A model generated the notes under the pieces. It ran no database searches. It worked only from the letters and a program-made list of their open reading frames with translations, and was not told the origin of the DNA. 64,000 nt of DNA from positions 1 through 64,000 of the IMG/VR virus record IMGVR_UViG_3300017917_004998. The stretch is one strand, 5' to 3'. Origin of the DNA: a virus. Numbering within the stretch: position 1 is the stretch's first letter; the number at the start of each line of letters is the position of its first letter. Below are positions 4,233 to 33,637 of the stretch, piece by piece. The position numbers and the translations under genes are program-made.

Positions 4233-5047
4233 ATGAAACTACTACAGATAATTAAAAATGCTTTTTCGCTGAGAATGGTTTGCTCTATTTTTAATAATGA
4301 TGCTCACGAAATTGTATCCAAACGAGGCAAAGAGATTTTGGAGAAACAGCAAAAAAGGTACACGTTTATCCCAAACGCAAAGACATCACGTACGCAATCT
4401 GATATGGTTGATATCATAATTGGAGTAAATGGAAAAAGACGAAGATATAAGTAAAATGAAAAAACTATTTTTATTTCTTCTAAGAAGGTACAGTAACACC
4501 GAAACTCAACGAATTGAGATTTATAAAGAGTTGTGGTACAACACCAAAGACCAATATAACGAACAAACTTCATTTGGTACTGTTTACAACATGAACACTG
4601 AAATGCTTATTGCTAATCCTTTCTTTGAAAGTAGAGTGATGCTGGGTCAAGACGAGCATTTAAGAATGCTGAAGCAAGGGTTGGCTAATTCGTTTGATCA
4701 AAGTGTAGAGTTTATTTTAAAAAACTGATAATATGAAACTAGGAGAATTTATACAAAACTTTAGTCACAATAACGTTGTTAGACTAATGTACAAAGAAAA
4801 GGGAGGAAACAGACTTGTCCTCGAAGATTGGAACGACGTTTCAATGGACCACGAGATTTTAAAATCTAGAGGAAAAAATCGGCACTACATCGACAACGAG
4901 GTGTTGGGACTAGCAACAATTCATTTTCGACCTGGAGTGGAGCACCACTACCCAGAGGCCTTAAATATCGTTATCGAAGAGTTAGAGAACCAGCCCTTTA
5001 TCGAGGAGGTCGTTGATGAGACCACTCACTACTCAGCAAGCTGCTGA
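4233..5047 (+). CDS. three small hypothetical proteins (4233..4454, 4456..4728, 4733..5047)
   Basis: Tightly packed same-strand ORFs. Confidence 0.7.
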
Positions 5048-5369: not shown

Positions 5370-6080
5370 ATGGAAAAATTACCGAATATTATTTTAGGAA
5401 ATAACAAAAACAAAGCTCCTCTTGGTTATCTGGGTATGCAAGAATCCTGGAATTCTTTTCAAGGATTTCTCAAAGAACAATGCTTTAAGTCCGGTGCTTT
5501 ATTAATTGATGGTCAGCCACATTTGAAAATATACGAAGATCCAACAAATGAGGACTCAGCTTTTCCAAATGTTTATTACGGAGCAAATGTCTTAATCAAG
5601 CCATCCACACAAGACAATGATCTTCTTGATCTATTGGATGATTTTGATGCTATGGGATTTAAAAAAAGCAGTAATGAATTTTTACTTGCAATACGAATTC
5701 AATCGGATTCTGTTGTATCTAGAGTATCACAGTCATATTACTCGGAGGTTTATCCTATAGAGTTACTAAGCAGATATAAAATAGATATTTCAATCTGTGA
5801 AGATCTTCAAGATCCGCATTTTAGCCAGATTCATTATTTTGGATCGCGTTTTGCCAGTCTACAAAAGAGAGAAACAATTCAATTCAAGTACATACTTAAC
5901 GTGGAACCAGGATCACCTTTATCTGAAGAAAGCCAAACCAACCACACAATCATGTTGAGCTCCAAAGAAATCTTTAAGAAACTGGAAGAGTGGGTAGTAG
6001 ATCTCGTTAAAATCCACATCGGAGAGATGCAAAGAACTTCAGAATCTGCTAACGGACTTGGGCGAGATTGGATTCGATAA
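5370..6080 (+). CDS. family-B paralog
   Basis: Internal DLLDLLDDFDAMGFKK block shared with 6274..6885 and 6928..7485. Confidence 0.75.
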   Translation: MEKLPNIILGNNKNKAPLGYLGMQESWNSFQGFLKEQCFKSGALLIDGQPHLKIYEDPTNEDSAFPNVYYGANVLIKPSTQDNDLLDLLDDFDAMGFKKSSNEFLLAIRIQSDSVVSRVSQSYYSEVYPIELLSRYKIDISICEDLQDPHFSQIHYFGSRFASLQKRETIQFKYILNVEPGSPLSEESQTNHTIMLSSKEIFKKLEEWVVDLVKIHIGEMQRTSESANGLGRDWIR

Positions 6081-6096
6081 ACCGGATATATAAGCT

Positions 6097-6216
6097 ATGC
6101 AAGAAATTTTTCAGGAAACTCCGGCCCCAGTTATTATTTCATGGGTAGTTTTAGGTCTATCCTTCTGTATTGGTTTGATCATGCTTGTAAAGCAGAACTC
6201 CAAACCAGAGGAATAA
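6097..6216 (+). CDS. 39 aa single-pass membrane microprotein
   Basis: MQEIFQETPAPVIISWVVLGLSFCIGLIMLVKQNSKPEE*, just after GATATATA at 6085. Confidence 0.55.
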   Translation: MQEIFQETPAPVIISWVVLGLSFCIGLIMLVKQNSKPEE

Positions 6217-6273
6217 TTTAAACCCGTCTGTGTTCATTTTTATTTTCCGTGGGATTTACATATATTTGAGATT

Positions 6274-26086: not shown

Positions 26087-27202
26087 ATGGAAATCCTACT
26101 AAAGAAAACCAAAATCACCAAATCGATCATCAATCAGAGTCTACCTGCTCCTATCGATGCATTTTTGAAAACAGATTTTTATTATGAAGTTCTGGGCTGG
26201 TGTATGTACAATGACAAAAAGATTGTACTGCTATATGAGAGGGCTACCAATCAGGTCAGAACCTATTTCTACACACCTTCGTTCGGCAAGAAATACCAAT
26301 TCCTCGAAAGAGCTAGAGTTCAAAGGCCAGACATAAACGGGGGATGGGTTTTTCCTGAGGTTTACATTCTCAACATTCTAACAGAGGACGAAAGACCCGC
26401 TTATAGGCACGAGCAGAAGGAAAGCGAAACAGACGAGAAGATGAAGGAGATGGAAGAGAAGGCAATGAAGTACGCAGTCAGAGTTGCACAGGCAGGACAG
26501 ATTTACATCTAAAAAAAATTAGAATTTCTTTTTTTCTCTACGTTTGTTGATCTTATATTTAAGGTATCAAACAACAAGACCATGAAACAATACATCTTCT
26601 ACTACTACGACGAAAGCAGAGCATCCACATTCGGACCATGCTTAGTTAAAGGCCAGGGCGAAACCAAAAAGGAAGCATTTCTGGACGCTGCTAAGCGACA
26701 CTTCAACAACCCTGACGAAGAGGAGATAGCAGAATTCATGGAGAAAGCTGTTACATTGGCAACAGTCACCGGCTTGGGTGCAGAGGTCAAGATCAGTCAG
26801 AAGAACTTTGGAATGATCTTTGAAAGGTAAAATAATGAAAAGGTTTCTAAAATACAACATCTCAATCTTCAAAGTCTGGCTGACGTATATATTTTTACGA
26901 AAGCCATTCACACAGGAGGCGTACGACATTGTCAAGGACAACTACAGGTCAACACCAAGAGAGAAGAAAATCATGGTCAGAATCGCCAGGATCAATAGAT
27001 TAACCACATAATGGTAAAATTCCCGAGGAACCCAAAAGATGGTCAATTATTTTGTTCTGTGAATCTTGATCCAGCAACAAAAGATGGCGGCAGGTACGTC
27101 TATTGGCAGGGGAGATGGGTAGTTATAGATGGGGAGAGGAAAGAAAGAATTCCCACCATCACGAGCAGGATAAAGCATCTAAGAAAACATATTGACAAAT
27201 GA
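26087..27202 (+). CDS. early-type hypothetical genes 26087..26512, 26582..26830, 26835..27011, 27011..27202
   Basis: Promoter-led cassettes or coupled ORFs. Confidence 0.75.
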
Positions 27203-27573
27203 AAGACTTTACAGAATACCAAGAAGCTTTAGAGTTAAAGGAAATTGGATTTGACGAACCTTGTTTTGGAAGGTATAATAACAATGATGATTATCTATTA
27301 ATTGCTCATACTGAAAAATACATCATTAGTAACGGTGTTGATAGAAGTGAGTTTTTTATACTAGCACCACTTTACCAACAAGCATTCAGATGGTTTAGAG
27401 AGAAGTTTGGCTTAGTAGGTTTAATCGAGATTGGTACACAGGAATATTCTTTTCTCATATACGATGAAAAGACAGATAGTCGAAAAGTAACAAGTTCCAT
27501 GAATGGTACCTACGAAGAAGCGGAACTTGCTTGTCTTAGAAAACTAATTGAGCTTGCCAAAGAGGCTCGATAA
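27199..27573 (+). CDS. family-C paralog (ALELKEIGFDEPC...APxYxQAFR.FRE...YEEAELACLRK)
   Basis: Three conserved blocks shared with 28608 and 29038. Confidence 0.85.
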   Translation: MKDFTEYQEALELKEIGFDEPCFGRYNNNDDYLLIAHTEKYIISNGVDRSEFFILAPLYQQAFRWFREKFGLVGLIEIGTQEYSFLIYDEKTDSRKVTSSMNGTYEEAELACLRKLIELAKEAR

Positions 27574-27657
27574 ATTTAGATTTTAGTTTTTTCTCTGCGT
27601 ACAGAGGCCTTATATTTATGGTATCAAACAAACTAAAAGGCAAACAATTACAGTCCT

Positions 27658-28023
27658 ATGAGCACAACGGCAAGAGCATGCAACAATTGCAACACGCAAT
27701 ATCAGGCTGACAACCGCAACCTAAAAAGAGGCTGGGGCTTAACATGCTCCAAACGGTGCGCAGCTTCTCTCAGAGAAAAATCAAAGCCTGGTTACAACCC
27801 AAAGCGTGTAGCAGCCAACAATTTCAGAAGGGAGAATTGGAAAGTGGAGGATGAGAATGAGTATGGTGTGTTTAAGGGTAGGTACACATCGGAGGGGTAC
27901 AGGATGTACGTGAGGGAGAACGACGAATACACCGCGGTGGATAAGTTTGGTGATGCTGTGTATGACGGAGTGACTTGGTATGAAGACGAGGATGACAGCG
28001 AATACTGGAACGACAAGGATTGA
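27658..28023 (+). CDS. zinc-finger protein with acidic tail
   Basis: CNNC...TCSKRC. Confidence 0.72.
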   Translation: MSTTARACNNCNTQYQADNRNLKRGWGLTCSKRCAASLREKSKPGYNPKRVAANNFRRENWKVEDENEYGVFKGRYTSEGYRMYVRENDEYTAVDKFGDAVYDGVTWYEDEDDSEYWNDKD

Positions 28024-28096
28024 TCGGACCAGTATTTCTCATTTTTTCTCTACGCATCAAGGTCTTACATTTACAGTATCAAAACACAAAACACAC

Positions 28097-28589
28097 ATGA
28101 ATCAAAAAGAAAAACAAGACCAGCTAATGGATCCAAATGTAAGAGAGGATCTATTAAAGAGATTACATAATAGCTTCGAAAAAGCAGAGACAGGAATTCC
28201 ATTCTATTCTGACGACGAAGGTGTAGCCGGCGGAGGATGGATGAAGATCTCCTTTAAAGTCTATCTCAATGCAGACCAGCTGATTAAGGTTTCGGAATTC
28301 ATCAAAGAGAAGTTCTCTGTACCCGGAACATTCAGCCACATCCTTCCCAAGATTGGAGTTTCCAAAGGAGGAGTTTCCATCATCGTCCAGGACACAGAGG
28401 TTCAAAGAATCGCAGAGGAGGGAAAAATTTAATTAGGGCCTCGAGGTTGGGACCTTATATTTACACGAACCAAGAAATCTCAAATCCATGAAAAACCTAA
28501 ACAACAGAGACATTTTTTTACTAGGCATGATTGCCGGAGCAGCCTTGGCTGGTATCTTAGCACTTATGGCTAGAATGATCATATCATAA
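28097..28589 (+). CDS. hypothetical protein 28097..28432 and 33 aa membrane peptide 28488..28589
   Basis: Both directly after a promoter motif. Confidence 0.65.
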
Positions 28590-28607
28590 TTAATCCCAAC
28601 CAGAGAC

Positions 28608-28967
28608 ATGATAGAAAAAGACTTTACACCATACGGAGAAGCTTTAGATCTAAAGCAACTTGGATTTGACGAACCTTGTTTTGGTGTTTATGCCACAAAG
28701 GATGGATATGTCAGAAAAAGTGCATATGATGAAAATGGAGATGCTCCAACCTATTATCAAGCATTTAGATTCTTTAGAGAGAAGTATAAGTTAAAATGTT
28801 GCATTATTCCATTAGTATGCGAGCAGGGATTTTCGGATTTATATGAAAGTCGAATCCATCAAGAAAAACATAGTATTTCAATAATAGGTAATCATAAAGA
28901 TTACGAAGAAGCAGAACTCGCCTGCCTTAGAAAGATGATCGAAATAGTCAAAGCCTCTAAAAAATAA
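28608..28967 (+). CDS. family-C paralog
   Basis: Conserved blocks. Confidence 0.85.
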   Translation: MIEKDFTPYGEALDLKQLGFDEPCFGVYATKDGYVRKSAYDENGDAPTYYQAFRFFREKYKLKCCIIPLVCEQGFSDLYESRIHQEKHSISIIGNHKDYEEAELACLRKMIEIVKASKK

Positions 28968-29037
28968 ATTGGGATTCTCGTTTTTTCTCTACGTTTCTTG
29001 ATCTTACATTTATGGTATCAAACCAATAGGAGAACAA

Positions 29038-29427
29038 ATGATAGAAAAAGATTTTACACCCCGCACAGAAGCTTTAGAGTTAAAAGAAATTGGATTTGAT
29101 GAACCTTGCTTAAAGTTTTATGCAAACGGGAAATTGGTATTGGGACTTGATACTGACAATGGTGATGCTAACAGTAAACTGAGTCAGTATAATCAGTTGT
29201 TTGTTTCCGCGCCAACCTACTCACAAGCATTTAGATTCTTTAGAGAGAATCATAAATTTCATTCAAACGTTAAATGTGTTGATACCGTTACCAATAAGCA
29301 TTTTCGATACGAAATAGAATCTAATGGGGAGACATTAGTTTGTCGTAATAGAATTGAATCTTACGAAGAAGCAGAACTTGCTTGTCTCAGAAAGATGATC
29401 GAAATCGTCAAAGCCTCTAAAAAATAA
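29038..29427 (+). CDS. family-C paralog
   Basis: Conserved blocks; 3' end and downstream DNA nearly identical to the 28608 copy. Confidence 0.85.
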   Translation: MIEKDFTPRTEALELKEIGFDEPCLKFYANGKLVLGLDTDNGDANSKLSQYNQLFVSAPTYSQAFRFFRENHKFHSNVKCVDTVTNKHFRYEIESNGETLVCRNRIESYEEAELACLRKMIEIVKASKK

Positions 29428-29492
29428 ATTGGGATTCTCATTTTTTCTCTACGTTCTTAGTTCTTATGTTTACAGTATCAAAACAAAAGAAA

Positions 29493-29626
29493 TAGTCAGG
29501 CATCGGAAGTGCAATAGCGGTATAATAAACTATGGTAGGGCGAAAATCTGAGATAGTGTAAAAACCTGCAAAAGATGGGAAACCAATTGAAGCTATTGTA
29601 ACAGGTTCGAATCCTGTCCTGACTAC
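29493..29626 (+). ncRNA. tRNA-like element 1 (no D arm; long multi-hairpin insert)
   Basis: TAGTCAGG...CCTGACTA acceptor, ACAGGTTCGAATCCTGT T arm, internal stem GCAATAGC/GCTATTGT; directly after an early promoter. Confidence 0.75.
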
Positions 29627-29641
29627 TAAAAAATAAAAAAT

Positions 29642-29761
29642 ATGCAAAACTTTTTAACATTTTTCCTCTATCCCCTATGTGCAACGCTTTCAACAATCTT
29701 TTTGTTTGCTATTGGTATCCAAATTGAAAAAATAAGAAAAGATAATCATACGGAATCTTAA
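29642..29761 (+). CDS. 39 aa membrane microprotein
   Basis: MQNFLTFFLYPLCATLSTIFLFAIGIQIEKIRKDNHTES*. Confidence 0.6.
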   Translation: MQNFLTFFLYPLCATLSTIFLFAIGIQIEKIRKDNHTES

Positions 29762-29815
29762 TCGAGACCGTGTATTCTATCAACAACGATCTTTGACGTA
29801 CTGGAATAAATTAAT

Positions 29816-29924
29816 TAGTCAGGTGGCGGAATGGTAGACGCTAGAAGTGAATAGATAAGTTAGTATGTTGTCACTTAAAACCATTTACAACTTATCATAC
29901 AGGTTCGAATCCTGTCCTGACTAC
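29816..29924 (+). ncRNA. tRNA-like element 2
   Basis: Leu-type D arm, then stem GATAAGTT/AACTTATC abutting the T arm; no anticodon arm. Confidence 0.8.
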
Positions 29925-29982
29925 GAAACCCAAGAGCATTTTACATGAACACTGGTTGACAGCTCGGAAAGTACGAGCAACA

Positions 29983-30060
29983 TAGTCAGGTAAAGTTGGC
30001 ATCGGAATTGGCAGTCTAGAATGTTCCACCGAGTATAGGTTCGAATCCTGTCCTGGCTAC
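29983..30060 (+). ncRNA. tRNA-like element 3 (no recognisable D arm)
   Basis: TAGTCAGG...ATAGGTTCGAATCCTGTCCTGGCTAC. Confidence 0.7.
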
Positions 30061-30128
30061 AAAAATTAGATTCTCATTTTTTATCTACGGCCCGAATGCT
30101 TACATTTAAGGTATCAAATAAAGGAAAT

Positions 30129-30353
30129 ATGAAAATAATGGAAATTTTACTTTTGACAAGCTGGATTTTGGGGATCTTATTATCAATCCTTTTTACAATT
30201 GGTGCTTGGATTACTAAAGATAAAAAACAGTGGGAAAATGCATGGCTTTTTTTTGTATTAGCCTTTTTTACTGGATACATCACAACAATACCAATTATTT
30301 TCGTCTGTGTGGTTCTATCGTTAAGTACAAGATTCAGACAAAATGAAAAGTAG
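30129..30353 (+). CDS. small multi-pass membrane protein
   Basis: Hydrophobic 74 aa ORF after a promoter. Confidence 0.7.
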   Translation: MKIMEILLLTSWILGILLSILFTIGAWITKDKKQWENAWLFFVLAFFTGYITTIPIIFVCVVLSLSTRFRQNEK

Positions 30354-30360
30354 ATAAACC

Positions 30361-30678
30361 GTGATAAAATTTAATCTATACAGCGAGCTGGAAGGAATAG
30401 ACTACTCTTTGAATACATCATTTAATAGTGTGGATGAATTCATAGAGTGGATGGACGACGACTATGATGCATTTGTAGATGAGATGGAAACGTCAAATGG
30501 AGAGGATTGGAGTGGAGTTCATGACTTCGCATCCGGATATGAAGATGGCGCGGGATTTGTCGGATATTCCTCGTACGAGATTAAAAACTTCGAGGCTGCT
30601 TTGGATAGATGGAGAGAATTTTTTAGGTCCAGGGGTAAGTTAGTAGATAACACTATAGTCAGGTGGCGGAATTGGTAG
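30361..30678 (+). CDS. acidic hypothetical protein whose stop lies inside tRNA-like element 4
   Basis: GTG start; last codons IVRWRNW* are encoded by the repeat. Confidence 0.7.
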   Translation: MIKFNLYSELEGIDYSLNTSFNSVDEFIEWMDDDYDAFVDEMETSNGEDWSGVHDFASGYEDGAGFVGYSSYEIKNFEAALDRWREFFRSRGKLVDNTIVRWRNW

Positions 30679-30789
30679 ACGCCCCGGACCAAATCCGAAA
30701 AAGAGTAGTGACTCTATGATGGATGAAAACTGGGTCAGCTTGTAGGGTCACACATACATGATTGCAGGTTCGAATCCTGTCCTGACTAC
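30656..30789 (+). ncRNA. tRNA-like element 4
   Basis: Leu-type D arm; insert with GTGACTCTA/TAGGGTCAC stem. Confidence 0.8.
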
Positions 30790-30861
30790 AAATAAAAATT
30801 AGATTCTCATTTTTTATCTACGTTCTTAGTTCTTATATTTACAGTATCAAAACAAAAGAAA

Positions 30862-30967
30862 TAGTCAGGTAGCTCAAATGGTAAGAGCGTTTGTTTGTTA
30901 GGATGTGTACAGTCCGACTAAAAAGAACACAAACAAAAGATGCATGGATCGTTCCTGTCCTGACTAC
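30862..30967 (+). ncRNA. tRNA-like element 5 (class-I D arm, 9-bp extended anticodon stem, degenerate T loop)
   Basis: GCTCAAATGGTAAGAGC; TTTGTTTGT/ACAAACAAA; directly after an early promoter. Confidence 0.75.
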
Positions 30968-30984
30968 AAATAATACATCTAAGT

Positions 30985-31179
30985 ATGAAAGAAAAGGTTT
31001 TTAAATGGATCGATGCTCATAACCTAACTCTAGAAGAAGCTGGGGATCTCGAATATCTGTTATCTTTGATTGGTAACTTCGAGGAAAACTATGAGGTGGA
31101 GTTTGAGGAAGAGAATGCTATTGGGTTGGCTATGGATTACCAAATTCATTTTAGAAAAAAGCTGGAGAATATGGGCTAA
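30985..31179 (+). CDS. 64 aa acidic protein
   Basis: ATG 18 nt after element 5. Confidence 0.7.
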   Translation: MKEKVFKWIDAHNLTLEEAGDLEYLLSLIGNFEENYEVEFEEENAIGLAMDYQIHFRKKLENMG

Positions 31180-31224
31180 TCCCATATATTCTATCAACAA
31201 TGATCTTTGACATAATAAGAAATT

Positions 31225-31353
31225 AAAAAGCCGCCTCAGAGAGGAGCAAGATTTATGTACTGTGCGTCATCCTAGTACGATAAATCCGTAATGGTGGTCC
31301 GCAAGACCTTTAACCCCAAGAGTAAAAGGACGTGAGGGGTTGGGCGGCTTTTT
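31225..31353 (+). ncRNA. structured RNA closed by AAAAAGCCGCC/GGCGGCTTTTT
   Basis: Nested stems GATTTAT-GTACT/AGTAC-G-ATAAATC, GGTC-cgcaa-GACC and ACCCC/GGGGT. Confidence 0.55.
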
Positions 31354-31357
31354 TAAA

Positions 31358-31483
31358 TAGTCAGGTGGCGGAATGGTAAACGCAACAGTAGACGGTTCTC
31401 AGTCCTAACGACAAAGAGTAGCTAACTTTGAAAGTAGGTGTCTGGTTAATCTGAGAAACAGGTTCGAATCCTGTCCTGACTAC
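31358..31483 (+). ncRNA. tRNA-like element 6
   Basis: Leu-type D arm; TTCTCAG/CTGAGAA stem with nested CCTA/TAGG and CAAAG/CTTTG. Confidence 0.8.
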
Positions 31484-31550
31484 AAAAATTAGATTCTCAT
31501 TTTTTATCTACGTTCTTAGTTCTTACATTTACAGTATCAAACAAAAGAAA

Positions 31551-31651
31551 TAGTCAGGTGGCGAAATTGGTAGACGCACTGGACAGGCGATGCATTTAAA
31601 ACAGAAATAAGCCCAGTCGGTACTTACAGGTTCAAATCCTGTCCTGGCTAC
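31551..31651 (+). ncRNA. tRNA-like element 7 (anticodon stem with oversized loop)
   Basis: ACTGG/CCAGT stem closing about 29 nt; directly after an early promoter. Confidence 0.8.
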
Positions 31652-31699
31652 AAACCTTAGGATTAATTACCCTAAGGCTGAGAGGTTCGAAACTCTCGA

Positions 31700-31786
31700 T
31701 TGACTATGGTGTAAAGGCGCACAGCAGAACGGAGTAGTAATACGAAAGGGGACGCAGGATTAAGGTTCGAATCCTTATTAGTCAGC
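31700..31786 (+). ncRNA. tRNA-like element of a second type (acceptor TTGACTA/TAGTCAG)
   Basis: D arm GTG-taaaggcg-CAC, T arm TAAGGTTCGAATCCTTA, no anticodon stem. Confidence 0.6.
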
Positions 31787-31792
31787 AAAACA

Positions 31793-31903
31793 CAGTCAGG
31801 TGGCGGAATTGGTAGACGCTTAAATGGAGTATCATGTTGTAGAACCAGTACGAAAACTACATCCTCTATATTCACTAACAGGTTCGAATCCTGTCCTGAC
31901 TGC
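31793..31903 (+). ncRNA. tRNA-like element 8 (C-1:G73 variant)
   Basis: CAGTCAGG...CCTGACTG; insert with TGTAG/CTACA stem. Confidence 0.8.
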
Positions 31904-31955
31904 AAATTCAGTTATCGGTGAGCAAGTCTGAATTAAAACAAAATCTTGCTCTACC

Positions 31956-32044
31956 TAGTCAAGTGGCGGAATTGGTTAGACGCATGCGGTGGATTTTAAT
32001 TGGAATTGCTGCTAAATTACAGGTTCGAATCCTGTCCTGACTAC
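31956..32044 (+). ncRNA. tRNA-like element 9
   Basis: Leu-type D arm; single extended hairpin with a 4-nt loop. Confidence 0.8.
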
Positions 32045-32059
32045 TAAAATTAAAAAACT

Positions 32060-32155
32060 ATGGGAGACCTTATAATCGTGAGTTTAGTGATGAATGTATT
32101 TTCTTTTTATGCAATTTACCTCCTTAAAAAAGAAGTTGATAAATTAAAAAGGTAA
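32060..32155 (+). CDS. 31 aa membrane microprotein
   Basis: MGDLIIVSLVMNVFSFYAIYLLKKEVDKLKR*. Confidence 0.6.
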   Translation: MGDLIIVSLVMNVFSFYAIYLLKKEVDKLKR

Positions 32156-32162
32156 AACAAAA

Positions 32163-32250
32163 TAGTCAGGTGGCGGAATTGGTTAGACGCATGCGGTAAC
32201 TTTTAAACGGAAGTCTGCTAAACTACAGGTTCGAATCCTGTCCTGACTAC
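32163..32250 (+). ncRNA. tRNA-like element 10 (sister of element 9)
   Basis: Same fold as element 9 with compensatory changes. Confidence 0.8.
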
Positions 32251-32263
32251 TAAAAATATAATT

Positions 32264-32446
32264 ATGATAGATTTAGATAAAGCGAAATTCATCGGAGAAG
32301 GTGAATGGGTTAAAGATTCAGCATATCAGGTATATGAATTGGACGGTAAATATTATTCCGTTATAGTAATTGGGCATGACAATAAAGAAATTATGGATGA
32401 TTCGATAACTGAAATTGCTAAAGAAGATATTAGTAAATACATCTAA
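32264..32446 (+). CDS. 60 aa acidic protein
   Basis: Fills the gap between elements 10 and 11. Confidence 0.7.
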   Translation: MIDLDKAKFIGEGEWVKDSAYQVYELDGKYYSVIVIGHDNKEIMDDSITEIAKEDISKYI

Positions 32447-32452
32447 ATAAAA

Positions 32453-32569
32453 TAGTCAGGTGGCGGAATTGGATAGACGCTATTAGGGAGTTATAGTAAG
32501 TGGGAATTTCTCACCGCAATCGGAGCCTTAACACTTACACTACAGGTTCAAATCCTGTCCTGACTACCA
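32453..32569 (+). ncRNA. tRNA-like element 11 (encodes CCA)
   Basis: GTAAGTG/CACTTAC stem; ends CCTGACT-A-CCA. Confidence 0.8.
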
Positions 32570-32670
32570 AAAATCATGAGTTGTTGTTGACTCCGGGGCT
32601 GAGAGAAATCTCAGCCTCATTTTTTTGAAACGTAGTGGTTTTCTATATTTACAGTATCAAACAAAAGAAA

Positions 32671-32745
32671 TAGTCAGGTAGCTCAACGGTGAGCGGGTCC
32701 GTAACAGGAGTTGCCGTATGCAGGTTCGAATCCTGTCCTGACTAC
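32671..32745 (+). ncRNA. tRNA-like element 12 (shortest; class-I D arm, 6-nt loop)
   Basis: GCTCAACGGTGAGC; TCC-gtaaca-GGA; directly after an early promoter. Confidence 0.75.
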
Positions 32746-32758
32746 AAAAAATAAAGTT

Positions 32759-32896
32759 ATGAAAAAAGATACAAAAGATACATTAAAAGTTGTTGGCATA
32801 ATGATTATGTTTACATCATTACTTCTTTATAGTTTTTATGTGCATAGAAATGAACCACATTGGTTTGAAACAAGATATGTTAAAATTGTAAAATAA
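32759..32896 (+). CDS. 45 aa single-pass membrane microprotein
   Basis: MKKDTKDTLKVVGIMIMFTSLLLYSFYVH...; ATG 14 nt after element 12. Confidence 0.65.
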   Translation: MKKDTKDTLKVVGIMIMFTSLLLYSFYVHRNEPHWFETRYVKIVK

Positions 32897-32902
32897 ACAA
32901 AA

Positions 32903-33014
32903 TAGTCAGGTGGCGGAATGGTAGACGCAAGTGAGATATTATTAGAGCGCCTCAAGTAGCATGAGGAGTCGCAAAGTTATAATATCATACAGGTTCGAAT
33001 CCTGTCCTGACTAC
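32903..33014 (+). ncRNA. tRNA-like element 13
   Basis: GATATTAT/ATAATATC stem with nested CCTCA/TGAGG. Confidence 0.8.
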
Positions 33015-33031
33015 AAATAATACATCTAAAT

Positions 33032-33235
33032 ATGACAGTTAAAGAGCTCAAAGAAAAATTGGAGGGGCTTGATCCAGATATGAAAGTCGGGGGCAGAGGA
33101 CACTTCGGTGAATTCCTTCAGACATGGGATGCAAGGGTAACCGAGGCTTCCGTAGGAGGTGGCCTATATAGAGAAGGAGTAAAAGAGGAAATATTCTACA
33201 TATCAATCGAGGACGCAGGTCCAGATCCAGATTAA
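33032..33235 (+). CDS. 67 aa protein flanked on both sides by the element 3' end
   Basis: MTVKELKEKLEGLDPDMKV...; followed by GAATCCTGTCCTGACTACA. Confidence 0.75.
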   Translation: MTVKELKEKLEGLDPDMKVGGRGHFGEFLQTWDARVTEASVGGGLYREGVKEEIFYISIEDAGPDPD

Positions 33236-33237
33236 CC

Positions 33238-33256
33238 GAATCCTGTCCTGACTACA
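33238..33256 (+). repeat. isolated 3' half of the tRNA-like repeat
   Basis: GAATCCTGTCCTGACTACA without the 5' part. Confidence 0.85.
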
Positions 33257-33277
33257 AGCACACTGATATATACAAGA

Positions 33278-33535
33278 ATGAAAACTTACACAGAAGAAGA
33301 GGTTAAGGAATTAATCCATGCAGTGGTTTTAGAAACAGCAAAAGGAGTTAAAGATTGGTTTGAAAAGGAGACTGTCATCAAAAACAAAGAAACTGGAGAT
33401 GTGATAGAAGATGCGAACCTCTGCCTAAAGGAAGATCCAGCAAACCCGCTAAAGGGTTACATCTACCCAAGGCTCGAAAAATTCGGGATCGAGTACAACA
33501 CGGAACTAGGTGCATTTCGACCCACACAGAAGTAA
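33278..33535 (+). CDS. hypothetical protein
   Basis: 85 aa ORF; GATATATA at 33265. Confidence 0.7.
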   Translation: MKTYTEEEVKELIHAVVLETAKGVKDWFEKETVIKNKETGDVIEDANLCLKEDPANPLKGYIYPRLEKFGIEYNTELGAFRPTQK

Positions 33536-33536
33536 A

Positions 33537-33594
33537 AAAAATCATGAGTTGTTGTTGACTCCGAGGCTTAGAATTTTCTAAGCCTCATTTTTTT
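33537..33594 (+). terminator. repeated two-hairpin terminator module (also 24423..24480 and 32570..32626)
   Basis: AAAATCATGAGTTGTTGTTGACTC(C)G(A/G)GGCT.AGA...TCT.AGCCTCATTTTT in three copies. Confidence 0.8.
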
Positions 33595-33637
33595 GCCGCG
33601 CAGTTTTATTCTACATTTACAGTATCAAACAACAACC

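Follow-up and report, generated by a model that had tools for sequence, protein, structure and literature searches.

An array of repeats shaped like transfer RNA (tRNA), interleaved with very short open reading frames (ORFs), in the genome of an uncultured T4-like phage raises the question of whether the repeats act as joints for the exchange of genes in DNA, as cutting sites in RNA or as both. The array occupies 29494–33254 of the window, i.e. the whole stretch of 64,000 nucleotides (nt) analyzed here, which comprises positions 1–64,000 of the 123-kb IMG/VR record IMGVR_UViG_3300017917_004998 (∼52% complete by estimate) and whose numbering is used throughout; it lies in the hyperplastic early-gene region of the phage. 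The host probably belongs to the Bacteroidota, as is suggested by the rarity of Shine–Dalgarno motifs genome-wide and by the taxonomy of the motif-bearing metagenome bins. A first-pass annotation of the sequence had proposed that the repeats are recombination anchors in an integron-like array, sites at which one transcript is cut into mini-messages, or both. The joint explanation that best accounts for the data, and which we hold to be moderately probable, combines homologous shuffling of modules through the constant frames of the repeats with the predicted excision of the repeats from a shared transcript by ribonuclease (RNase) P and RNase Z.

The array consists of 13 full tRNA-shaped elements (E1–E13) and one 18-nt 3′ fragment, all on the plus strand.

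29494–29625, plus strand: E1, tRNA-like element of 132 nt with the constant acceptor and T arm
29817–29923, plus strand: E2, tRNA-like element with the shared frame
29984–30059, plus strand: E3, tRNA-like element with the shared frame, a U3–G70 wobble variant
30657–30788, plus strand: E4, tRNA-like element with the shared frame
30863–30966, plus strand: E5, tRNA-like element with the shared frame and a degenerate T loop
31359–31482, plus strand: E6, tRNA-like element, 97% identical to L150 1700–1832
31552–31650, plus strand: E7, tRNA-like element with the shared frame
31794–31902, plus strand: E8, tRNA-like element with an 89% homologue in L034
31957–32043, plus strand: E9, tRNA-like element with the shared frame
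32164–32249, plus strand: E10, tRNA-like element with the shared frame
32454–32566, plus strand: E11, tRNA-like element with the shared frame
32672–32744, plus strand: E12, tRNA-like element with the shared frame
32904–33013, plus strand: E13, tRNA-like element with the shared frame
33237–33254, plus strand: 18-nt fragment (T-loop half and 3′ acceptor strand), a repeat of the element 3′ end

Every copy in the window has the acceptor stem AGTCAGG/CCTGACT followed by the discriminator A, a leucine-tRNA-type D arm and a standard T arm. The constant parts are thus a 5′ frame of ∼26 nt (acceptor strand and D arm) and a 3′ frame of ∼25 nt (T arm and acceptor strand). Between the D arm and the T arm lies a middle of 20–80 nt that is unrelated from one copy to the next, and whole elements measure 73–132 nt. 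An exact match to the 22-nt 3′ end of the element is present in at least 120 other IMG/VR contigs; labels from L010 to L165 denote contigs or loci compared with the window, some of which lack elements. This 22-mer is often present several times per contig, with the same 5′ frame and a different middle each time.

The ORFs between and beside the elements are as follows, with lengths in amino acids (aa).

29642–29761, plus strand: micro-ORF 29642, 39 aa, membrane-type with a hydrophobic segment; hexamer score unsupportive
30129–30353, plus strand: micro-ORF 30129, 74 aa, two hydrophobic segments; weak DUF6773 match, hexamer score unsupportive
30361–30678, plus strand: ORF 30361, 105 aa, acidic; runs 22 nt into E4, its stop being the TAG in the E4 D loop
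30985–31179, plus strand: micro-ORF 30985, 64 aa, acidic; coding score 0.73
32060–32155, plus strand: micro-ORF 32060, 31 aa, membrane-type; borderline coding score, partial homologue in L117
32264–32446, plus strand: micro-ORF 32264, 60 aa, acidic; coding score 0.99, widespread phage protein family
32759–32896, plus strand: micro-ORF 32759, 45 aa, membrane-type; borderline coding score
33032–33235, plus strand: micro-ORF 33032, 67 aa, acidic; coding score 0.95, eight protein clusters at 67–97% identity
33278–33535, plus strand: ORF 33278, 85 aa, acidic, conserved backbone gene; homologues at 52–80% identity

The hexamer coding score, trained on the long ORFs of the window phage, places 30361, 30985, 32264, 33032 and 33278 inside the range of real genes; these same five ORFs form the acidic set (isoelectric points 4.1–5.0), as the first-pass annotation had described for most of the ORFs without membrane segments. 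Its membrane microproteins, including 30129, were also recovered, with hydrophobic segments in 29642, 30129, 32060 and 32759. The family of ORF 32264 comprises 124 protein clusters (63–98% identity, nearly all of 60–66 aa), some of them on contigs of up to 320 kb. Searches of the microproteins against Pfam and PHROGs gave nothing useful on function, and no relatives of ORF 30361 or of its 226-aa neighbor 33638 were found in viral contigs.

The spacing between ORFs and elements is tight and recurrent. Seven ORFs start 14–23 nt after a discriminator (29642, 16 nt; 30985, 18 nt; 32060, 16 nt; 32264, 14 nt; 32759, 14 nt; 33032, 18 nt; 33278, 23 nt), in agreement with the earlier figure of ∼13–22 nt, which was counted from the conserved C. 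Four ORFs stop 1–8 nt before the next element or fragment (32060, 8 nt; 32264, 7 nt; 32759, 7 nt; 33032, 1 nt before the 18-nt fragment), as had been noticed for several of them; the corresponding gaps are larger for 29642 (55 nt) and 30985 (179 nt). For comparison, 172 elements from 120 non-window contigs were examined for ATG-initiated ORFs of at least 25 codons, with 920 random positions and 209 ordinary tRNAs from the same contigs as controls. An ORF started 13–22 nt downstream of 47 of the 172 family elements (27%) versus 61 of the 920 random positions (6.6%) and 19 of the 209 ordinary tRNAs (9%), and a stop codon lay 5–9 nt upstream of 34 of 146 elements (23%) versus 3.7% for random positions and 8% for ordinary tRNAs. 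Start distances cut off sharply below 13 nt and are most frequent at 14–16 nt. Among the 77 non-window ORFs that start 8–35 nt past an element, the median length is 53 aa, and a membrane-type segment is present in 17 of them. Since the spacing recurs across the 120 contigs, this architecture belongs to the whole family and not to the window alone.

The leaders themselves are less distinctive. The A-rich leader that had been reported behind the elements is indeed present there, but it is not a mark of the cassettes: a Shine–Dalgarno-like motif precedes only 10 of 98 long ORFs, and A-rich leaders lacking it occur genome-wide. A leader common to two cassettes, also reported earlier, was confirmed at 30953–30991 and 33000–33038 (95% identical over 39 nt up to the ATG; repeat family D7). 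The 21-nt leader shared after E5 and E13 was found nowhere else in 120 related loci.

The evidence for the exchange of modules comes from comparison with relatives, of which the closest are two metagenome contigs, L149 and L150. The central case is the following segment.

32224–32482, plus strand: exchange unit comprising the E10 T arm and 3′ acceptor strand, a 14-nt leader, ORF 32264, a 7-nt spacer, and the E11 5′ acceptor strand and D arm

This unit aligns to L150 and L149 at 94.6–95.8% identity from the upstream T arm to the downstream D arm. The copy of ORF 32264 in L149/L150 is 97–98% identical and is positioned 13 nt past one element and 7 nt before another, and the middles of the flanking elements are unrelated to those of E10 and E11. 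In two viral contigs, L154 and L155, ORF 32264 recurs at 95–97% with the same spacing, yet with other elements on both sides; the same ∼257-bp block (94–96%) is the sole DNA common to L150, L154 and L155. Across the four lineages (the window, L149/L150, L154 and L155) the upstream and downstream middles are all unrelated and of different length. Furthermore, in L150 the copy of E6 (97%) directly precedes the ORF 32264 cassette, whereas the window has 740 extra nt there (E7 to the 5′ part of E10); an indel whose ends both fall in constant frames is the product expected of recombination between direct repeats. Gene order also differs: in L149/L150 a homologue of ORF 33278 (74%) comes before the 32264 copy, whereas ORF 33278 follows ORF 32264 in the window. 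Three more distant relatives, L151, L152 and L121, keep the backbone genes (homologues of 28097, 33278, 34462 and 35012) but have no elements, and in L156–L165 a gene of the 32264 family (55–92%) is an ordinary gene without elements.

The same pattern holds over the 120 contigs. Ends of homology blocks fall inside the frames in 25 of 215 cases on the left and 18 of 207 on the right versus 0.5% expected, i.e. ∼20-fold above chance. At least one flank is homologous for 27 element instances: 15 of these form junctions with homology on one side only, in five the replacement is confined to the middle, and a further five are conserved throughout. Conversely, element pairs with homologous middles (87–100%) have neither flank in common in 20 of 26 cases. 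The whole of E1 is 90% identical to an element of L046, where both flanks differ; the L034 homologue of E8 has unrelated flanks and a compensatory change within its middle; and L026 and L112 have flanks of ∼87% identity and share an ORF (98% identical) that follows unrelated elements, the homology starting again exactly at the T arm. The positions of these junctions indicate that micro-genes and RNA middles assort independently, with the frames as joints. The proposal that the repeats are homologous-recombination anchors is therefore well supported by these alignments: homology blocks begin and end in the constant frames, and the cassettes differ in content and in order, an identical order across relatives having been set beforehand as a refutation.

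An alternative interpretation is that the elements and ORFs have no functional link, the elements being independent small-RNA genes (carriers, decoys or mimics) that adjoin ORFs through genome compactness, with any cutting of messenger RNA (mRNA) a by-product. Elements with the same middle in unrelated contexts, the existence of the 32264 family as an element-free gene, the genome-wide A-rich leaders and a similar interleaving in the tRNA regions of phages T5 and T4 would all agree with this. However, the close ORF spacing is three times as frequent as for ordinary tRNAs of the same contigs, and the fixed 14-nt and 7-nt spacing around ORF 32264 is kept in four lineages, so that this interpretation appears possible but rather doubtful.

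Among known systems, the closest mechanism is the shuffling of promoter-early stem-loop (PeSL) cassettes, in which repeated intergenic motifs flank orphan genes in the hyperplastic regions of T4-type phages, indels and replacements in relatives end in the repeats, and homologous recombination is the proposed mechanism (PMC2839356; PMC4122927). In the window too, the repeats flank orphan genes and the indels and replacements of relatives were found to end in the repeats. In contrast to PeSLs, the main repeat here is an RNA gene with its own swappable middle and not a promoter/terminator composite, and the homology amounts to ∼25 + 25 nt in the window family versus ∼100 nt in PeSLs. In addition, the window contains true composite repeats of 66–96 nt, in which a T-run or terminator is joined to a promoter-like motif.

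30062–30127, plus strand: PeSL-like composite repeat of class A (T-run and promoter-like motif; repeat families D3 and D5)
32569–32664, plus strand: PeSL-like composite repeat of class B (terminator hairpin 32595–32618, T-run and promoter-like motif; repeat family D15)

Other class A copies lie at 28966–29031, 29426–29491, 30795–30860 and 31485–31550, and a second class B copy, 84% identical over 96 nt, lies at 33537–33632. The 14-nt motif TTTAYRGTATCAAA has 18 copies in the window versus 0.18 expected, all on the plus strand between 19274 and 34451 and usually preceded by a T-run or hairpin terminator; it ends 10–11 nt before E1, E5, E7 and E12 and 8–15 nt before several ORFs. It is probably a phage promoter, in which case the transcripts would have almost no leader. 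The composite repeats split the array into five units.

Unit 1: E1, ORF, E2, E3
Unit 2: two ORFs, E4
Unit 3: E5, ORF, branched structured RNA, E6
Unit 4: E7, a different structured RNA, E8, E9, ORF, E10, ORF, E11
Unit 5: E12, ORF, E13, ORF, fragment, ORF

Promoter-like motifs and terminators thus bracket groups of elements and ORFs and not single units. As a separate observation, the class B direct repeats bracket the whole last unit, from E12 to ORF 33278, and this segment of ∼970 bp is a candidate PeSL-type excisable module. The two structured RNAs differ in kind.

31226–31352, plus strand: branched structured RNA with a 10-bp GC-rich closing stem and then a T-run, between ORF 30985 and E6; fold z-score −2.1
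31651–31790, plus strand: second structured RNA, after E7, with two hairpins (one T-arm-like) and a tRNA-like part with its own 6-bp acceptor stem; conserved in relatives

The first may serve as a structured terminator or represent a further small RNA. The second is 76–87% conserved in L010, L016 and L053, with compensatory change in six pairs, and has no match in Rfam.

The exchange could alternatively be driven by an enzyme. In an integron-like system, a dedicated site-specific recombinase would act on the folded or duplex repeat and insert or excise circular cassettes. The integron integrase IntI recognizes attC sites, and the T loop is the crossover site of many phage integrases. Like an integron, the array is a row of short, mostly promoterless units of one gene each, all in the same orientation, between repeats whose ends are conserved and whose centers vary; the breaks of three 3′ fragments (18 nt at 33237 in the window and 16–17 nt in L051 and L050) lie no more than 3 nt apart in the T loop; and the succession of E13, ORF 33032 and the 18-nt fragment resembles an insertion flanked by a 21-nt duplication. 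However, the 123-kb record contains no tyrosine recombinase (PF00589), a result for which control genomes were positive and which applies to a record that is only about half complete, and no reverse transcriptase. The repeats show none of the attC architecture (imperfect palindromes with R and L boxes) but score as tRNAs with cloverleaf arms and evolve with the wobble and compensatory changes typical of RNA, and promoter-like motifs and terminators occur inside the array. Furthermore, other derivatives break at 12 nt or are deletions between the GAAT common to the D loop and the T loop. Variable break points together with such microhomology deletions are better explained by general recombination accompanied by some illegitimate events than by a single fixed crossover. 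In its strict sense the integron-like designation of the first-pass annotation is thus not sustained, and an integron-like mechanism is highly improbable.

Gene conversion by a homing endonuclease is a second enzyme-driven scheme, in which a Seg-type or HNH enzyme would cut the constant frame and repair would copy the neighboring modules. SegB drives such conversion in the tRNA region of phage T4; segB lies within that region, as do three HNH genes within the T5 tRNA region. In the family studied here, GIY-YIG-like ORFs adjoin elements in L016, L050 and L085 and the homologue of 33278 in L151. The record, on the other hand, has no GIY-YIG or HNH domain, and the repeats present no defined target site. 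This scheme is unlikely for the window, whereas homing-type conversion may still operate elsewhere in the family, given the ORFs of the relatives. These Seg-like ORFs are located at 4408–5085 in L016, 13013–13684 in L050, 7308–7946 in L085 and 3788–4138 in L151. Homologous recombination, in turn, is favored by a RecA-fold match that the record contains at 83.4 kb.

At the RNA level, the frame behaves as a folded molecule. Acceptor-stem variants number 39 of 178; 20 of these are wobble pairs, six are fully compensatory and ∼13 are broken. The D-stem variants covary, and homologous middles show compensatory changes. Such pairing-preserving changes indicate that the frame evolves as RNA. Base preferences at the borders were counted in 159 non-window elements. 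Bacterial RNase P prefers U at position −1, and U is found there in 82% of these elements versus 29% in the background. The discriminator is followed by C in 97% and then by an A-rich tract, and CCA is not encoded; the ordinary tRNAs of these phages likewise lack an encoded CCA, and no CCA-adding enzyme was found in the record. The gaps of 1–23 nt between elements and ORFs leave no room for promoters, and the elements and ORFs should therefore be co-transcribed. As RNase P and RNase Z would be expected to act on folds of this kind, a cut at each element is a plausible consequence of this anatomy.

The elements might instead remain attached as stable 5′ or 3′ folds that protect the mini-messages or insulate their translation. 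The 13-nt minimum to the ATG would match what a ribosome needs downstream of a stable fold, and some stop codons overlap the start of an element. Bacterial RNase P, however, cuts even minimal acceptor/T-arm helices, and the conserved U at −1 and the tRNA elbow favor processing, which renders a purely cis-acting role quite unlikely.

How upstream ORFs terminate bears on the same borders. Of 45 substantial ORFs of this kind elsewhere in the family, 36 stop 3–10 nt before the element and only two run into its body, an avoidance that fits punctuation. In seven the stop is a UAG formed by the U at −1 and the first two bases of the element, a signal built into one reading frame. In another frame, ORFs that read into the element (30657–30678 of the window, and in L046, L095 and L150) all end in ..IVRWRNW, the translation of the constant 5′ frame as far as the TAG of the D loop.

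The closest RNA analogues of the array are mitochondrial tRNA punctuation and the t-elements of plant mitochondria, in which tRNAs or non-decoding tRNA-like folds abut mRNA ends and are thought to direct cuts by RNase P and RNase Z (PMC1920247). As in those systems, a tRNA-like fold was found to flank coding regions on the same strand of the window. Here, however, the setting is a bacterial virus, the spacers are 13–23 and 1–8 nt instead of direct abutment, and the elements carry conserved cargo and are probably products themselves. The closest layouts are the tRNA regions of T5 and T4. In T5, tRNA genes alternate with ORFs of 27–96 aa, one of which has two membrane segments, and the region contains the tRNA-like stable RNAs RNA1, RNA2 and RNA3, several promoters and HNH genes. 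In T4, rnaC, which has an acceptor-like stem and a T arm, and rnaD are neighbors of tRNAs and of segB. The difference is that the punctuating units there are mostly real, distinct tRNAs, whereas 13 copies of one non-decoding frame serve here.

The elements are one phage-specific family of non-decoding, leucine-tRNA-shaped RNAs. In Rfam only the general tRNA model matches (36–43 bits for seven window elements), and ARAGORN accepts two of the 13 window elements and 40 of ∼190 over all loci, with inconsistent or undefined anticodons; the regular anticodon stem with a 7-nt loop of a canonical decoding tRNA is absent from the elements. Blastn searches of the array and of its neighborhood against 50,697 phage records gave no match, and the only hits of a single element were to the T arms of ordinary tRNAs. 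A full-text literature search found no paper on this tRNA-like family, which is not proof of absence. Three other origins were considered and rejected. An origin from host tRNAs is contradicted by the rarity of the 22-mer, which occurs in only 23 contigs among 185,579 species genomes, all of them metagenome bins and many from Bacteroidota. Decay of tRNA pseudogenes disagrees with the wobble and compensatory changes that keep pairing and with middles conserved at 87–100% across unrelated contexts. Diversity-generating hypermutation of the middles disagrees with their differing lengths, their unalignable sequences and the lack of a reverse transcriptase. The middles show no antisense match to the genome of the phage itself beyond shuffled controls, and they fold only slightly better than shuffled sequences (mean z-score −0.67), so that fold stability alone proves little.

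Two further observations may be recorded. The cultured flavobacterial jumbo phage pT24 of Tenacibaculum (L122) carries a near-identical pair of 79-nt 'tRNA-Undet' genes, whose anticodon loops are enlarged, at 5790–6235, as well as other odd tRNA-like units, none of which belongs to the family of the window. Just to the left of the array, 27190–29427 contains three paralogous genes from a family of ∼120 aa whose N- and C-terminal motifs are conserved; a member directly precedes the homologue of 33278 or 32264 in L121 (1–70) and L160 (1441–1500). By its recurrence beside the same genes, this family marks the left border of the variable region in several phages.

Taken together, the combined explanation would operate as follows. 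The region would be built from small, independently assorting modules, namely tiny protein genes and non-decoding tRNA-shaped RNAs, for which the constant frames and the 66–96-nt terminator/promoter repeats would serve as portable homology in DNA. General phage homologous recombination between any two frames would delete, insert or replace the intervening DNA, the exchanged stretch being either a one-gene cassette or the middle of the RNA itself. This exchange step is shown by the comparison with relatives. The elements and ORFs would then be transcribed together, host RNase P would cut the 5′ end of the element and RNase Z-type processing its 3′ end, and cutting would release the tRNA-shaped RNA and leave mini-mRNAs with A-rich leaders of 13–23 nt that lack a Shine–Dalgarno motif. 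The cutting step is plausible from the anatomy of the elements. Several points weigh against this explanation. The crossover is not locatable within an invariant frame, so that a sequence-specific enzyme is possible given a record that is ∼52% complete, and frames of only ∼25 nt are short for efficient homologous recombination. Seven of the 45 upstream stops span the predicted RNase P site, and cutting would remove those stop codons; these cases, together with the extension of ORF 30361 into E4, argue that cutting may at times be incomplete or do harm. Processing alone does not explain why the frame is strongly conserved in sequence beyond its pairing, and the promoter role of TTTAYRGTATCAAA is putative.

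A more speculative extension, advanced tentatively, is that the frame is a 'standard connector' with two coupled uses: it would allow cassettes and small-RNA cargo to be exchanged by recombination in the frame and would guarantee their expression, as host tRNA-processing enzymes would cut each unit of the early transcript into a stable RNA and a mini-message. Punctuation would in that case have evolved jointly with a gene-shuffling system. Owing to the ∼257-bp exchange unit around ORF 32264, the model is open to direct test, and the frame, as a natural tRNA scaffold, may also be attractive in practice for the expression of small RNAs and microproteins. The PeSL idea is hereby extended from promoter/terminator repeats to an RNA gene. 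If the model is correct, the array would be a bacterial-virus counterpart of mitochondrial tRNA punctuation, and it would provide a sequence-defined mechanism for the gain, loss and exchange of the many tiny orphan genes and small RNAs of large environmental phages.

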